44,763 bases of DNA. Origin: an uncultured archaeon. Lineage in GTDB: Archaea; Aenigmatarchaeota; Aenigmatarchaeia; Aenigmatarchaeales; JACQIB01. The notes below the pieces were generated by a model. The model had not been told where the DNA came from. It made no database searches and saw only the letters and a program-made list of their open reading frames with translations. A program made the position numbers and the translations under genes. Every line of letters begins with the position of its first letter. The stretch's first letter is position 1. Shown here in pieces: positions 3,768 to 28,446 of this stretch. Location: positions 1-44,763 of the forward strand of contig CAYJQM010000001.1 of NCBI GenBank assembly GCA_964372405.1, in the 5' to 3' direction.

Positions 3768-4864
3768 TTAACGTTTTTTAAGAAAATTTTAATTTCCTCG
3801 ACTACCTTTTTGGTTGCATGTGCATCCTTAAGCTTCCGCTTCTTTAGTTTGCCATGTTTCACTGTTCCTATCTTAGAAAGTATTTCACTGCTATTACACC
3901 CGGTTACAAAGACGTTGTAATTGCTTAGATTTCCATACTGAAGAAAATTGTTTGTAACTATACACGGCTTTCCGAGTGCTGCACATTCCTCTTCAACGCC
4001 GTTGCTATCTGTTATAACACATGAGCTGGCTTTCATTAAATGTATATAGTCTACATAGTTCAATTTTTCTATAATTTTAGTATTTTCTAACCGTAAGTTC
4101 ATTTTTGAAAGCATCATCTTTATCGCCGGATTTGGAGAATAGATAACAGGCAGTGGGGAATTTTCCATTGCTGTTATCAGTTCCTTGAGATTATTTTTAT
4201 TTTTTACTCTTACAGAATTTGCTAAAACGTATTTACCTTTTGGCAAATCTACAGCAGATTTAATTGAAAGTGCTAGTTTTGTTGTTTCTACAACTGGGTT
4301 ACCGATGCAGACTATCTTGCCCTTCACGTCATTCAGGTTATGTTCAAGTTCTGGAGACCTTATGAATATCAGATCTGCTGCACTTTCTCCAACTTTGTAT
4401 CCAAAATCCAGCAAATTGTTTTCGCCTGTCCTCAAACCTGCTTCGTAATCGATAAGCACTGGAGTTTTCTTCAATGCCTGTGCAGCACGAACTGTAATGC
4501 CAACAGTCAATGTGTTACCCAAGTAAATTATCGGACCACCAGTATTTGCAAAGATCGTCTTTAATGAATTTATTGCTTTAAGTCCCCACACCAAAGATAT
4601 TGCAGCTCCCGAAATGCTGTAAGGTCCCAACATTTTCAGCTGTACTATTTTGTGCGAGGATAGTTTAGACCACTTCTCTCTTGGGGATTTGCGTAACTTG
4701 AAGTCTGGTTTTTGGAGTTTCAACAGCTCTACAATATCGCTTGTATCCTGTTGGTTTGTGTCAATTGTTAAGAAATTTATTTTCTGTCTTCGAAGCTCTT
4801 TAATTAGTGATGTAAATTTAATCAGTTCGCCGCGTGTTCCGTAAACTAATGTCAACATATTCAT
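3737..4864 (-). CDS. UDP-N-acetylglucosamine 2-epimerase-like (WecB family) protein
   Basis: N-terminal LTLVYGTRGELIK and C-terminal ..VITDSNGVEEECAALGKPCIV.. resemble the WecB GTRPE.IK and DSGG.QEEA..LG.P motifs. The last codons (..IGEQK*) are supplied by the repeat cassette. ATG at 4864 is preferred over TTG at 4870. Confidence 0.65.
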   Translation of the reverse strand: MNMLTLVYGTRGELIKFTSLIKELRRQKINFLTIDTNQQDTSDIVELLKLQKPDFKLRKSPREKWSKLSSHKIVQLKMLGPYSISGAAISLVWGLKAINSLKTIFANTGGPIIYLGNTLTVGITVRAAQALKKTPVLIDYEAGLRTGENNLLDFGYKVGESAADLIFIRSPELEHNLNDVKGKIVCIGNPVVETTKLALSIKSAVDLPKGKYVLANSVRVKNKNNLKELITAMENSPLPVIYSPNPAIKMMLSKMNLRLENTKIIEKLNYVDYIHLMKASSCVITDSNGVEEECAALGKPCIVTNNFLQYGNLSNYNVFVTGCNSSEILSKIGTVKHGKLKKRKLKDAHATKKVVEEIKIFLKNVNFAPQIGEQK

Positions 4865-25684: not shown

Positions 25685-25728
25685 AAGCAGTTTTCGACGG
25701 TGATTTGATTATGCCAATCTTTAGTGCG

Positions 25729-28008
25729 ATGCCAAAGGAAATAAAGGAAGTTAAGATGAAAGTCGGGGAACTTACAGGAAGGGAAGACTTTGGTCGCGGG
25801 TTGGCAAGAATCGATTCTAATACAATGAAAACACTTGGTGCGAAGGAAGGAGATGTCATAGAGATTGAAGGCAAGAGAAAAAGTTCTGCTATTGCAATCC
25901 GTTCCTATCCTGCTGATGTTGGCTTGAATGTAATAAGGATTGACGGTTTGGTCAGAAAGAACTGCGGAACAAGCATAGGCGAATCTGTTACAATAAGAAA
26001 GGCGGATGTAAAGGAAGCGAAGAAAATTGTTCTTGCTCCGGCAGAGAAAGGTTTGATTTTACATTTCTCGCCAAACTTGCTTAAGCAAAACATTTACATG
26101 AGACCTATGGTTAAAGGCGACATTATAATTGCAAATCCAGTTTTCAGGACAAGGGGACGCGGTTCAGGCGATATGTTTGAGCAAATGTTTGGAATTTCCA
26201 TGGAAGAAGTTTTCTTACCGATGGGAACCGAGACAAGATTAGCTGTTGTTAAGACTTCACCAGAGTCGGTTGTTCAGATTACCGACATGACTGAAGTCGA
26301 GCTTCTACCAGAAGCTGTTGACATGGAAGAATCTAAGGCACCGTCAGTTACATATGAAGACATAGGCGGTTTGACGCAGATTGTTCCTAAAGTTAGAGAA
26401 ATGATTGAACTCCCATTGAGACATCCAGAAATCTTTGAGCGTTTAGGAGTAGAACCACCGAAAGGAGTTTTGCTTTACGGGCCTCCAGGTACAGGAAAGA
26501 CTTTGCTGGCTAAAGCAGTTGCTAATGAATCGGGCGCGCACTTTATTTCAATTGCAGGCCCAGAGATTGTTAGCAAATGGTATGGCGGTTCAGAAGAAAA
26601 CTTAAGAAAAATTTTCGAAGAGGCAGAGAAGAACGCACCAACAATCATTTTCTTTGATGAAGTTGATGCCATCGCACCAAAGCGTGAGGAGGTAACTGGT
26701 GAAGTTGAGCGTAGAATGGTTTCTCAACTTTTGAGTCTAATGGACGGGTTAAAGTCCAGAGGTAAGGTTATTGTTATTGCAGCAACAAATAGACCAAATG
26801 CAATCGATCCGGCTTTACGTAGAGGTGGAAGGTTTGACAGGGAACTAGAAGTTCCAGTTCCTGATAAAGCTGGAAGAAAAGAAATATTCCAGATTCACAC
26901 AAGAGGTATGCCTTTGGAAACCGATGTAAATCTTGATAGATTATCTGAAGTAACTTATGGTTACGTAGGTGCAGACTTGTCAGGACTGTGCAAGGAGGCT
27001 GCCATGTCGGCTTTGCGTAGAGTGTTACCAGAAATTTCTGCTTTGAAAGAAGGTGAACCGATACCTAAGGAGGTAATAGAAAAACTGCAGATAACTAAAG
27101 ACGATTTTGATTACGCGTTGAAAATGGTGCAGCCATCTGCGATGAGAGAAGTTTTAGTTGAAATACCAAAAGTAAAATGGGAAGATGTTGGAGGCCTTGA
27201 AGATGTTAAGGGTGCTTTGAAGGAAGCTGTTGACTGGCCATTGAAGAATCCTGAATCATTCACTAGAATGGGAATAAAACCAGCGCGTGGCATATTGCTA
27301 TACGGTCCGCCTGGATGTGGAAAGACTTATATTGTCAAGGCTTTGGCAAACGAAGCTGGTGCAAACTTTATTTCAATAAAGGCTGGTGAACTTTACTCAA
27401 AATGGGTCGGTGAGAGCGAACAAAGAATAAGAGAAGTTCTCAGGCGCGCAAAACAAGTAGCACCAACAATAGTGTTCTTTGATGAGATAGATGCCCTTGC
27501 TCCGCGCAGAGGAATGGATGCAGGTAGCAGAGTTTCAGAACAAGTGGTTTCACAATTGCTTACAGAAATGTCTGGCATTGAAGACATGGAAGGAGTTGTT
27601 GTGATTGCAGCAACAAACAGGCCTGATATGATTGATCCTGCTCTGTTGAGACCGGGAAGATTTGATAGAATGGTTTACGTTCCAGCTCCAGATGAAAAGA
27701 CAAGATTTGAAATTTTGAAGACGCACACAAAAGAAATGCCTATTAAAGGCCTAGACATGGAAGCACTTGCAGAAAAGACAGAAGGCTACAGCGGAGCTGA
27801 CATAGAAGCAGTTTGCAGGGAAGCTGGGTTAAATGCATTACGTTCCGATATGAACGCAAGCGAAATAACTAAAAAAGATTTCAATGATGCATTGAACAAA
27901 ATAAAACCAAGCATAACACAGGACATGTTTGCTAAATACCAAAAGGCTGTTGAAGACGTAAAGAAAGCAAAAGTTGATGAGGCAGAAAAAAGTAGATACA
28001 TAGGATAA
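25729..28008 (+). CDS. cdc48: Cdc48/VAT-type AAA+ ATPase (double-psi barrel N domain plus D1 and D2)
   Basis: N domain ..GRGLARIDSNTMKTLGAKEGDVIEIEG.. . Two Walker A motifs are present (GPPGTGKT, GPPGCGKT), along with two DE Walker B motifs and SRH regions. The start is ambiguous (ATG 25711, 25729 or 25756). The protein ends in ..KSRYIG. Confidence 0.9.
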   Translation: MPKEIKEVKMKVGELTGREDFGRGLARIDSNTMKTLGAKEGDVIEIEGKRKSSAIAIRSYPADVGLNVIRIDGLVRKNCGTSIGESVTIRKADVKEAKKIVLAPAEKGLILHFSPNLLKQNIYMRPMVKGDIIIANPVFRTRGRGSGDMFEQMFGISMEEVFLPMGTETRLAVVKTSPESVVQITDMTEVELLPEAVDMEESKAPSVTYEDIGGLTQIVPKVREMIELPLRHPEIFERLGVEPPKGVLLYGPPGTGKTLLAKAVANESGAHFISIAGPEIVSKWYGGSEENLRKIFEEAEKNAPTIIFFDEVDAIAPKREEVTGEVERRMVSQLLSLMDGLKSRGKVIVIAATNRPNAIDPALRRGGRFDRELEVPVPDKAGRKEIFQIHTRGMPLETDVNLDRLSEVTYGYVGADLSGLCKEAAMSALRRVLPEISALKEGEPIPKEVIEKLQITKDDFDYALKMVQPSAMREVLVEIPKVKWEDVGGLEDVKGALKEAVDWPLKNPESFTRMGIKPARGILLYGPPGCGKTYIVKALANEAGANFISIKAGELYSKWVGESEQRIREVLRRAKQVAPTIVFFDEIDALAPRRGMDAGSRVSEQVVSQLLTEMSGIEDMEGVVVIAATNRPDMIDPALLRPGRFDRMVYVPAPDEKTRFEILKTHTKEMPIKGLDMEALAEKTEGYSGADIEAVCREAGLNALRSDMNASEITKKDFNDALNKIKPSITQDMFAKYQKAVEDVKKAKVDEAEKSRYIG

Positions 28009-28022
28009 TTGTAGGTGATAAT

Positions 28023-28388
28023 ATGAATGAAGAAGATAAAAAAGTACGTGTGAATTTGAACATAGACCACGGACAACAGGCATTTTTTGCGGACCGCGTT
28101 ACGGTTTCGCACTTTCCAAACAAGTTTGTGATAGACTTTACGCAGGCATTGCCACGTTTTGACGTTGTAGGCGACCAACCGCAGCAAACTTTGGTCGTGA
28201 AGCATAATCCAATTGTAATGGATCCGAATGTTGTGAAAGAGTTCGTGCGTGTGCTTACAGAAAATATGGACAAGTATGAGAAGAATGTTGCGAAGGTTAG
28301 TATGCCAAAACAATCCAAGCAAAAAAAATCTTCAAAACCTTCGATGCAAAAATCAACAACGGATGCATCAAGCAGGTATATTGGTTAG
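28023..28388 (+). CDS. DUF3467-like protein ending in SRYIG
   Basis: ..FFADRVTVSHFPNKFVIDFTQALP..VVKHNPIVMDPNVVKEFVRVLTENMDKYEKN.. resembles the DUF3467 consensus. An AGGTGAT SD lies 4 nt before the ATG, 14 nt after the cdc48 stop. Confidence 0.65.
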   Translation: MNEEDKKVRVNLNIDHGQQAFFADRVTVSHFPNKFVIDFTQALPRFDVVGDQPQQTLVVKHNPIVMDPNVVKEFVRVLTENMDKYEKNVAKVSMPKQSKQKKSSKPSMQKSTTDASSRYIG

Positions 28389-28393
28389 TTTTG

Positions 28394-28446
28394 CTGCATT
28401 GCGAAGCAATGCAGTTATTTGATTGCTGAACTGCTTCGCAGTTCAG
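28394..28446. terminator. pair of perfect 9-bp hairpins between convergent genes: CTGCATTGC-GAA-GCAATGCAG and CTGAACTGC-TTC-GCAGTTCAG
   Basis: 28394-28414 and 28426-28446. Each contains the GCGAAGC heptamer (the second on the opposite strand), so one hairpin is oriented for each converging transcript. Confidence 0.6.

Follow-up and report, generated by a model that had tools for sequence, protein, structure and literature searches.

A Y-hydrophobic-G C-terminal tail shared by Cdc48, a PbaB-like PAC2 protein and DUF3467 in DPANN archaea, a candidate docking element for the 20S proteasome

The cdc48-DUF3467 locus and its genomic background

The window analyzed here, a stretch of 44,763 nucleotides from an uncultured archaeon of the order Aenigmatarchaeales, carries on its forward strand two closely spaced genes whose products end in the same five residues. 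The upstream gene, cdc48 (25705–28008), encodes an AAA+ unfoldase with an N domain, D1, and D2, which matches the CDC48 model TIGR01243 at 1072.7 bits (cut-off, 802.65) and in which a family HMM search found CDC48_N, CDC48_2, two AAA, and two AAA_lid_3 domains. Since TIGR01243 is matched only from residue 16 onward, the position of the start codon is not certain. The protein ends in ..EKSRYIG, and the codons of the terminal pentapeptide S-R-Y-I-G (AGT AGA TAC ATA GGA, 27991–28005) are followed by a TAA stop (28006–28008). After a gap of 14 nucleotides, which includes a Shine-Dalgarno-like AGGTGAT (28013–28019) and in which no terminator-like site was found, the second gene (28023–28388, forward strand) starts with an ATG at 28023 and encodes a protein of 121 residues. 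This protein matches the DUF3467 family, PF11950, at 34.2 bits (cut-off, 25) over residues 5–90, and at 35.2 bits when the genome was searched in six frames. It ends in ..ASSRYIG, the pentapeptide being encoded by AGC AGG TAT ATT GGT (28371–28385) in front of a TAG stop (28386–28388), and the third base differs in all five codon pairs. The identical ends, their different codons, and the short gap with its own AGGTGAT had been pointed out in an earlier note on this DNA, and all are present in the sequence. On the 3′ side of the DUF3467 gene, and before a convergent histone gene, lies a terminator-like hairpin on the forward strand (28393–28415), a 10-bp stem followed by TATTTGATTG, which by its position is the putative closure of a cdc48-DUF3467 two-gene unit. 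Judging from the gene spacing and this hairpin, cdc48 and the DUF3467 gene are probably cotranscribed in the order.

The host is a tiny DPANN archaeon with a 634-kb, 88% complete genome, in which ordinary 20S α and β subunits are encoded, with no HslV beyond them. The α subunit retains YDR and SPDGR motifs as well as, by alignment to solved archaeal α subunits, the pocket Lys (the Lys66 equivalent) in ..DKIHQID... No classic AAA unfoldase other than Cdc48 was found; a PAN-like second AAA protein turned up neither in this genome, at its 88% completeness, nor in 40 genomes of the order. Cdc48 appears to be the sole unfoldase for 20S there. On another contig the same genome encodes a PbaB-type PAC2 protein that ends in ..LKYIG, matches PF09754 at 148.2 bits, and among PDB structures finds PbaB (3VR0) with an E value of 1.7e-58 and PbaA (3WZ2) with one of 1.5e-19. 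Among 840 open reading frames of at least 100 residues in the genome, 0.015 ends of the form [RK]YIG would be expected, against the three seen in Cdc48, DUF3467, and the PbaB-like PAC2 protein (Poisson P ~6e-7), each of which stops directly after Y-I-G; for two neighboring genes to share all five terminal residues, the expectation is ~6e-4 cases per genome. A further open reading frame, on contig C14, has a canonical-looking E-F-Y-G end.

Conservation of the tail and architecture of DUF3467

Within the order, all 22 DUF3467 orthologs end in [RK]YIG and all 29 complete Cdc48 ends read [RK]Y[IV]G, those at 10 loci without a downstream DUF3467 gene included, while the tail is carried by every PAC2 protein (30/30), the joint pattern of the three families being [RKT]-Y-[IV]-G. 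The penultimate residue is Ile throughout, with Val in one Cdc48, and a further 120 of 120 closest PAC2 homologs end in [KR]YIG. Because the tail is kept in orthologs of all three families, we conclude from the sequences that it is a feature selected at the protein level, neither a DNA repeat nor a product of chance; the claim that the identity is held in the protein and not in the DNA, which had been made from the codon differences, therefore stands. Of the 22 genomes with DUF3467, 20 have it directly next to cdc48. DUF3467 is missing from about half of the order's genomes and is therefore dispensable; Cdc48 and PAC2 retain their tails in those genomes.

In 15 further DPANN genomes, Cdc48, PAC2, and DUF3467 all end in Tyr, a hydrophobic residue, and Gly or Ala, with two exceptions among the Cdc48 proteins. 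The resemblance extends over six residues in one lineage, where the DUF3467 ends RPSYMG, RPHYMG, and MPNYFG mirror the Cdc48 ends KPSYMG, RPSYYG, and KPRYFG. Of 136 DUF3467 representatives, 91 end in Y-x-G and 101 in Y-hydrophobic-[GASR], and conservation reaches 2.6, 1.5, and 2.8 bits at positions −1, −2, and −3, respectively, against at most 0.95 bits from −4 to −25, where the variable Lys/Glu linker is free to diverge and only the three terminal residues stay fixed. The conserved positions are tied to the very end of the chain, with a small last residue, and the tail is kept across DPANN phyla in which the gene does not adjoin cdc48; outside the order its upstream neighbor encodes MCM, an M50 site-2 protease, or a coiled-coil protein. 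A general cdc48-DUF3467 operon link is rejected on that ground. Neither a lack of synteny nor a lack of tail similarity in relatives, outcomes that the earlier note had named as refuting, occurred: synteny holds within one order, and the Y-hydrophobic-G pattern recurs in all three families, with partial covariation beyond it. Strict covariation is rejected because DUF3467 and Cdc48 of one genome frequently have different residues at the hydrophobic position (M/Y, L/F, I/V, and I/F), and the resemblance of their extended tails holds at the level of lineages only. In two lineages, positions −4 to −6 of DUF3467 are closer to the tail of Cdc48 than to that of PAC2, whereas for Nanohaloarchaeota and the other members of the class, the YIG of DUF3467 fits the YIG of PAC2 better than the YFG or YVG of Cdc48.

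The DUF3467 protein consists of a folded core (residues ~20–90), a Lys/Ser-rich linker of low model confidence (~91–116), and the tail (117–121). In the AlphaFold2 model, pLDDT is 95–98 over residues 21–90 and 52–67 over 101–121, and the core is a three-stranded sheet (strands 25–30, 35–49, and 52–66) with a helix (68–88) that ends in the conserved Y-E-K-x-F-G-x-I, from which a linker of about 30 residues leads to the tail. Conservation confined to the last three residues, behind a low-confidence linker, is what characterizes a docking peptide at a chain end. Within the family, conservation is highest in the YEKxFGxI segment, which is common to bacteria, so the core must bind something that is not proteasome specific. 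A sequence search of the PDB for solved relatives of the core gave nothing below an E value of 0.5, and a Foldseek search against the PDB nothing below 0.09, with TM scores of at most 0.35; the top Foldseek matches, levivirus coat proteins and CapZ, were not taken as homologs. In a literature search, the family was not reported as a tail carrier: the name DUF3467 occurred only in one unrelated proteomics paper and PF11950 in none.

Comparison with known docking tails

Among the closest known counterparts is the HbYX tripeptide of PAN, archaeal Cdc48/VAT, AMA, PbaA/PbaB, Rpt2/3/5, and Blm10/PA200, which likewise lies at the extreme C terminus behind a flexible segment, and Cdc48 and PbaB, whose homologs carry the tail here, belong to families in which HbYX-dependent binding to 20S has been shown (PMC3493965, PMC3605417). 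All three proteins of the genome present the tail at the extreme C terminus with a free carboxylate, and its Tyr at −3 is among the residues allowed there by the published pattern, [LVIMGAPFYW][FY]x (PMC3493965). However, the penultimate residue is not Tyr or Phe, either here or elsewhere in the order, and [RK]YIG therefore fails the pattern, in agreement with the remark of the earlier note that the tail is not a canonical HbYX; only some other DPANN genomes, with Y-F-G and Y-Y-G variants, fit it. The invariant Tyr is thus at −3 rather than penultimate, Ile, Val, Leu, or Met takes position −2 in most cases, and the chain nearly always closes with Gly, where HbYX accepts any residue.

In register and chemistry the tail agrees with that of HslU, whose tails, EDLSRFIL in Escherichia coli and IDLAKYIL in Trypanosoma brucei HslU2, dock between HslV subunits, the third-last Tyr or Phe being the key determinant of HslV activation (PMC4106860). 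A basic residue, an aromatic residue at −3, Ile at −2, and the chain end are common to both, and an Ignavibacteria HslU encoded next to a bacterial DUF3467 ends in ..DLSRYIL, to be compared with ..EKSRYIG of the present Cdc48. Of the HslU-type pattern [RK]-[FY]-I-L, the first three positions are matched, but the last residue is Gly instead of Leu, the tail is carried by proteins other than HslU, and the would-be partner is the heptameric 20S α ring, not the hexameric HslV. Human 20S also prefers Tyr at P3, in a "Y-Phi" motif (Y-F/Y) for which the optimized peptide is ..NLSYYT (doi 10.1101/2021.04.28.441858). Tyr at P3 followed by a hydrophobic P2 is what the archaeal tail offers, although that motif was defined on human 20S with an aromatic P2, whereas the tail described here has a mostly aliphatic P2 and Gly at P1.

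As a whole protein, DUF3467 calls to mind the SspB-type adaptors of AAA+ proteases, in which a small folded domain is connected through a long disordered linker to a short C-terminal docking peptide. In its model, DUF3467 has the same three-part architecture. It has no sequence or fold relation to SspB, and whereas SspB docks on the N domain of the unfoldase, the docking proposed below for DUF3467 is on the peptidase ring.

Possible roles of the tail and of DUF3467

Published work has established that archaeal CDC48 docks on 20S in a C terminus–dependent manner (PMC3493965) and that PbaB needs its C-terminal motif to bind 20S (PMC3605417). Because both dock on the α ring by their C termini, we read Y-hydrophobic-G as a docking tail, and the explanation we favor, with reasonable though not strong confidence, is that it represents the DPANN form of the 20S docking tail and that DUF3467 is a tethered accessory factor at the same pockets. 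The C-terminal Y-hydrophobic-G, [R/K]-Y-I-G in this genome, would dock proteins in the inter-subunit pockets of the α ring; it sits on Cdc48, the only unfoldase candidate, and on the PbaB-like PAC2 protein, and DUF3467, built like a tethering factor from a small folded core, a flexible Lys/Glu-rich linker, and the putative docking tripeptide, has acquired the same tail. The DUF3467 tail might occupy α-ring pockets left free by the symmetry mismatch of six on seven with Cdc48 or four on seven with PbaB, or might alternatively take pockets in competition with these proteins. Its core would thereby be held next to the gate, and the Cdc48-20S machine might have in DUF3467 an accessory adaptor or regulator. 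A docking site common to the tail carriers, probably the 20S α ring, had been suggested before, and the conservation together with the PbaB-type carrier argues for it; docking of DUF3467 is, on sequence grounds, a well-supported prediction. Further points in its favor are the ordinary 20S subunits of the genome, the precedents for an aromatic residue at −3 in HslU and the human Y-Phi motif, and the lack of the tail in bacterial DUF3467 proteins, whose hosts have no 20S/Cdc48 system. Against it are the penultimate Ile, Val, Leu, or Met in place of the Tyr or Phe of HbYX, a register not known from tails that bind an archaeal α ring; the single tail of a possibly monomeric DUF3467, which would bind weakly; the restriction of the linkage with Cdc48 to one order, together with the dispensability of DUF3467; and the sharing of the YEKxFGxI segment with bacteria.

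The receptor might instead be Cdc48 itself or another shared partner. In free HslU, the C-terminal tail is buried at the interface between ATPase subunits (PMC4106860); by analogy, the D2 ring of Cdc48 could offer a resting site for the tail of Cdc48, for which the DUF3467 tail would then compete, and DUF3467 would be a Cdc48 cofactor anchored by tail mimicry. The tail of eukaryotic p97 binds PUB/PUL cofactors, and such a role would suit both the probable cotranscription with cdc48 and the two lineages whose DUF3467 tails side with Cdc48 at −4 to −6. We nevertheless consider this rather unlikely, since the tail is also found on the PAC2/PbaB protein, which is known to partner with the 20S α ring, not with Cdc48 (PMC3605417), no PUB/PUL-like partner is evident, and the DUF3467 tail of Nanohaloarchaeota and the other members of the class is nearer to that of PAC2. 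A carrier of the PAC2/PbaB type, with its C terminus–dependent binding to 20S, points to the α ring rather than to a PUB/PUL-type partner.

C-terminal tripeptides can also act as degrons, and a short tail behind a Lys-rich linker, which could conceivably be a site of modification or initiation, might serve as such a degron, stabilize the chain, or signal its processing on three proteins without any common docking pocket. This seems improbable, as two of the three carriers are known to dock by their C termini (PMC3493965, PMC3605417), a chain end and a small last residue are needed for the motif, as they would be for a pocket ligand anchored by its carboxylate, and bacterial homologs do not have it. 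Coincidence or functionless shared descent, such as the copying of a 3′ fragment of cdc48 onto its neighbor, is scarcely credible: the genes do adjoin and the motif is only three to five residues long, but every third base differs, the count of tails far exceeds expectation, DUF3467 keeps its tail in DPANN phyla away from cdc48, and the linker diverges next to three fixed residues, so that the conservation data already contradict this reading.

Bacterial members of DUF3467 keep the core with its YEKxFGxI helix end, live in hosts without the 20S/Cdc48 system, and have, instead of the Y-hydrophobic-G tail, a hydrophobic-G-F motif after a short linker (..KIGFVH, ..MFGFQPP.., and ..EIGF at the chain end). 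This motif looks similar to the tripeptide, IGF or LGF, of the loops that ClpX, ClpA, and ClpC use for docking on ClpP. The DUF3467 gene lies tail to tail with hslUV in 9 of 51 bacterial loci, each of them labeled Ignavibacteria or Bacteroidota. HslV as a general bacterial partner is rejected because it was found in only one of five other DUF3467-bearing bacterial genomes. ClpP was found in all five (weakly in one), which is uninformative. DUF3467 could tentatively be regarded as a universal accessory module for chambered proteases, the docking peptide of which was swapped to fit the resident machine; we think this unlikely, but were it so, protease docking in the two prokaryotic domains would be connected through a single domain family.

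A Y-hydrophobic-G tail with Tyr at −3 is thus common to Cdc48, PbaB-like proteins, and DUF3467 in at least three DPANN groups, and such a tail would escape pattern-based HbYX screens and databases. The proteostasis of DPANN archaea is minimal, and any extra factor at the Cdc48-20S machine is informative. The predicted docking on the 20S α ring by its tail would be the first testable function for DUF3467, and the tail would connect archaeal 20S docking with the register of the HslU tail and the Y-Phi preference of human 20S, which bears on how the recognition between tails and pockets evolved.

The cdc48-DUF3467 unit and its genome

The product of cdc48 (25705..28008, + strand), which matches TIGR01243 at 1072.7 bits and contains CDC48_N, CDC48_2, and two AAA modules, ends in ..VDEAEKSRYIG, the last five codons being AGT AGA TAC ATA GGA, followed by TAA at 28006-28008. 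After a 14-nt gap, which holds a Shine-Dalgarno-like AGGTGAT (28013-28019, +), the same strand encodes a 121-aa DUF3467 protein (ATG 28023, TAG 28386-28388; PF11950 34.2 bits, cut-off 25) with the C terminus ..TTDASSRYIG, written AGC AGG TAT ATT GGT before the stop codon. The third base differs in all five SRYIG codon pairs, and the account of the two tails in the earlier note, with their different codons, the 14-nt gap, and AGGTGAT, was exact on re-reading of the sequence. The two genes look like a single transcription unit, given that a search of the gap between them found no terminator-like site and that a terminator-like 10-bp hairpin with a T-rich tract (28393-28415) lies just 3' of the DUF3467 gene, before a convergent histone gene.

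The genome (634 kb, 76 contigs, 40.6% GC, 88% complete) is that of a DPANN archaeon, since the nearest homologues of its proteins carry the name Candidatus Aenigmatarchaeota. It encodes a third protein with an [RK]YIG end, on contig C5; this one belongs to the PAC2 family (270 aa; PF09754 148 bits; end ..KKPEDLKYIG) and is closely related to Pyrococcus PbaB (PDB 3VR0, E 1.7e-58). Ordinary 20S α and β subunits are also encoded, and the former is a normal archaeal α subunit (E 3.4e-64 to 3H4P) that retains the motifs YDR and SPDGR as well as the Lys within ..DKIHQID... A second classic AAA unfoldase was not found in this 88% complete genome, a PAN-like ATPase had no match in 40 genomes of the order Aenigmatarchaeales, and Cdc48 seems to be the sole candidate unfoldase for the 20S proteasome in both. 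A canonical hydrophobic-Tyr-x end occurs on a 232-aa ORF (contig C14, 761-1459, +; ..GTGEFYG), which may be coincidental because the ORF, judged by sequence alone, could be a DNA-repair glycosylase.

Distribution of the tail in archaea

All five close DUF3467 homologues (68-94% identity) end in SRYIG, while the linker ahead of the tail varies. The gene is present in 22 of 42 genomes of the order, always with an [RK]YIG end (22/22); at 20 of these loci the abutting same-strand upstream ORF is a Cdc48 C terminus ending in [RK]Y[IV]G, and the remaining two loci, which come from a single genus, have Cdc48 1.3-3.1 kb upstream in the same orientation, separated from DUF3467 by other ORFs. The tail is also found on all 29 complete Cdc48 ends in the order, 10 of them at loci without DUF3467 downstream, and PAC2 proteins end in [KRT]YIG in 30/30 cases in the order and in [KR]YIG in 120/120 of the closest homologues. 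The tail is therefore a property of Cdc48 and PAC2 regardless of DUF3467, which is an accessory gene bearing the same tail. In several relatives (among G012, G015, G016, G021, and G361), the Cdc48-containing ORF reaches 1215-1709 aa, and the match is split in two further genomes (G023 and G024), which points to insertions, perhaps inteins, or to fusions in this gene.

A profile search placed DUF3467 in about 94 of 371 genomes of the phylum. The Y-I-G end of the protein persists at 72 further loci (as Y-V-G or Y-I-D in a few), and the gene does not adjoin cdc48 there, its upstream neighbor being MCM, an M50 site-2 protease, or a coiled-coil protein. The gene lies directly downstream of MCM at 17 loci from other families of the class (including L066, L080, L089, L093, L097-L100, L107-L111, L116, and L117), the MCM protein ending in ..LFEPRPGFIQKI, and downstream of the M50 protease at 17 others. 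In a Woesearchaeota genome (locus L128), about 1.8 kb separates the DUF3467 gene (3950-4294; end ..QDYFG) from a PAC2 gene (1281-2129; end ..ATYIG) upstream on the same strand. A scan across 1.84 billion representative proteins yielded 136 relatives, of which 91 end in Y-x-G and 101 in Y-hydrophobic-[GASR], most commonly YIG (41), YFG (20), YMG (13), YLG (8), and YVG (5). Relatives anchored at the C terminus carry 2.6, 1.5, and 2.8 bits of information at positions -1, -2, and -3, respectively, and at most 0.95 bits at each of the Lys/Glu-rich positions -4 to -25.

The Cdc48 and PAC2 tails were then collected from 15 DUF3467-bearing archaeal genomes outside the order. Written as DUF3467/Cdc48/PAC2, they are RPHYMG/RPSYYG/TSYIG and MSYLG, RPSYMG/MPSYLG/TSYIG and MSYLG, RPNYLG/KVAYFG/AGYIG and LSYVG, RQDYFG/KPSYMG/MSYVG and ASYIG, APNYFG/KPSYYG/LNYLG, MPNYFG/KPRYFG and RQNYFG/TNYIG and MSYLG, and RPSYTG/KPSYYG/MSYLG in Woesearchaeota-labelled genomes; EDVYIG/DTDYVD/QTRYIG, YTGYIG/EISYVG/KLRYIG, EPTYIG/EIDYVG/KLRYIG, FSDYIG/EPEYLT/YSEYIG, SESYIG/DTRYLG/ETRYIG, and SSYIG/MSYVG/LRYIG in the rest of the class; and HNYIG/PDYFG/LGYIG and HGYIG/ADYFA/LGYIG in Nanohaloarchaeota. 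Y-hydrophobic-G/A is thus common to the three families, with DTDYVD and EPEYLT, both from Cdc48, as exceptions. Two lineages have an extended DUF3467 tail that parallels the Cdc48 one, namely the order, with [ST][RK]YIG, and the Woesearchaeota group, with [RK]P[SN]Y-hydrophobic-G; the other surveyed lineages do not, so the co-variation visible in these sequences is real at the lineage level but partial. The synteny and tail similarity in relatives on which the earlier note made its idea depend accordingly hold, the former for the abutting genes of the order and the latter for the widely kept Y-hydrophobic-G, but adjacency does not extend beyond the order.

Single-module AAA proteins of 376-451 aa, which are probably PAN, end in ..M-F-G in Woesearchaeota-labelled genomes (L205, L207, L209, L211, L212, L252, and L257) and in ..I-F-A in Nanohaloarchaeota (L258 and L259). 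Because these ends are HbYX-like with Phe, the same genomes appear to use two tail classes, one with penultimate Phe (PAN) and the other with Tyr third from the end (Cdc48, PAC2, and DUF3467).

Proposed docking on the 20S α ring and its alternatives

Archaeal Cdc48 binds and activates its 20S via the C terminus, and activation is lost when its last 12 residues are deleted (PMC3493965). PbaB likewise binds and activates mature 20S via a C-terminal motif; its tetramer caps the α ring and leaves some tails free (PMC3605417). Homologues of precisely these two C-terminal 20S binders have [RK]YIG in common in this genome and Y-hydrophobic-G throughout DPANN, and on the simplest reading the tail is the α-ring docking element of DPANN archaea. 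It differs from the published HbYX pattern, [LVIMGAPFYW][FY]x, which requires a penultimate Tyr/Phe (PMC3493965), in that the invariant Tyr occupies the antepenultimate position, which bears out the earlier description of the tail as noncanonical. The same register is seen in the HslU tails EDLSRFIL and IDLAKYIL, which insert between HslV subunits with the third-last aromatic residue as the key activating one (PMC4106860), and the human 20S also favors Tyr at P3 with a hydrophobic residue after it (doi 10.1101/2021.04.28.441858).

We therefore consider it rather likely that DUF3467 docks in the α-ring pockets. Chance is an extremely improbable source of the shared tail: for 840 ORFs of ≥100 aa in the genome, composition predicts 0.12 Y-I-G ends and 0.015 [RK]-Y-I-G ends, and three of the latter were observed (Poisson P ~6e-7). 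A terminal signal unrelated to docking is very unlikely, and a receptor other than the α ring, namely Cdc48 itself or another partner shared by the carriers, is also unlikely, albeit less so. If the DUF3467 tail does enter the α-ring pockets, the protein would be an accessory factor that adapts or regulates Cdc48-20S. It plausibly uses pockets that the 6-on-7 mismatch leaves unoccupied, or it competes with Cdc48 and PbaB.

DUF3467 as a protein family

The AlphaFold2 model of DUF3467, built with a 99-sequence alignment, has a mean pLDDT of 86.6 (95-98 over residues 21-90 and 52-67 over the last 20 residues) and consists of three long antiparallel strands (25-30, 35-49, and 52-66) and a helix (68-88). 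A PDB relative was not found by sequence, nor a fold relative by Foldseek (best E 0.09, TM ≤0.35). Such an architecture of three strands and a single helix may depend on a binding partner or on self-association. On the α-ring reading, DUF3467 looks like a tethered accessory protein whose core is joined by some 30 flexible linker residues to a docking tripeptide, a design similar to that of SspB-type adaptors.

Fetching of 80 loci from species genomes gave 51 bacterial ones (Ignavibacteria, Bacteroidota, Elusimicrobia, WOR-3, Chloroflexota, and others), whose proteins have the same core with the motif N-I-x-K-Y-E-K-K-F-G-E-I; of 14 control genomes, those of Thermus thermophilus, Bacteroides thetaiotaomicron, and Methanosarcina acetivorans contain PF11950. 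None of the 51 ends in Y-hydrophobic-G. Nearly all carry a conserved hydrophobic-G-F after a short linker, shortly past the end of the YEKKFGEIK helix (..PKIGFVH, ..GQMFGFQPPPKDEKFH, ..SPYGFQIPTKEKVH, ..MFGFQPPPKDEKFH, and ..EIGF at the very end, among loci L141-L199), which is similar to the IGF/LGF tripeptide in the loops that Clp ATPases use for docking to ClpP (reviewed in PMC9035409). At nine of the 51 loci, all labelled Ignavibacteria or Bacteroidota (L150, L159, L162, L170, L176, L180, L183, L187, and L196; about 3.9-6.3 kb), the DUF3467 gene and a convergent hslU-hslV operon are arranged tail-to-tail, and HslU there ends in ..R/KDLSRYIL, close to the ..EKSRYIG of Cdc48 in the window. 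In five other DUF3467-bearing bacterial genomes, a search found HslV in only one and ClpP in all five, one of the ClpP matches being weak. We regard it as a tentative and rather doubtful idea that bacterial DUF3467 may carry an IGF-loop-like motif for ClpP and that the family is a universal protease-docking module, a reading based on a three-residue resemblance and one lineage-specific hslUV neighborhood.

Our literature search turned up neither a function for DUF3467 nor an account of a tail register with Tyr third from the end for archaeal proteasome partners, and screens for the HbYX pattern, such as ProEnd (PMC11475706), would miss [RK]YIG. Docking of C-terminal tails on chambered proteases is known; what is new is the [RK]YIG variant and DUF3467 as a candidate carrier family, which, if the universal reading is true, would be a protease-docking module in archaea and bacteria alike.
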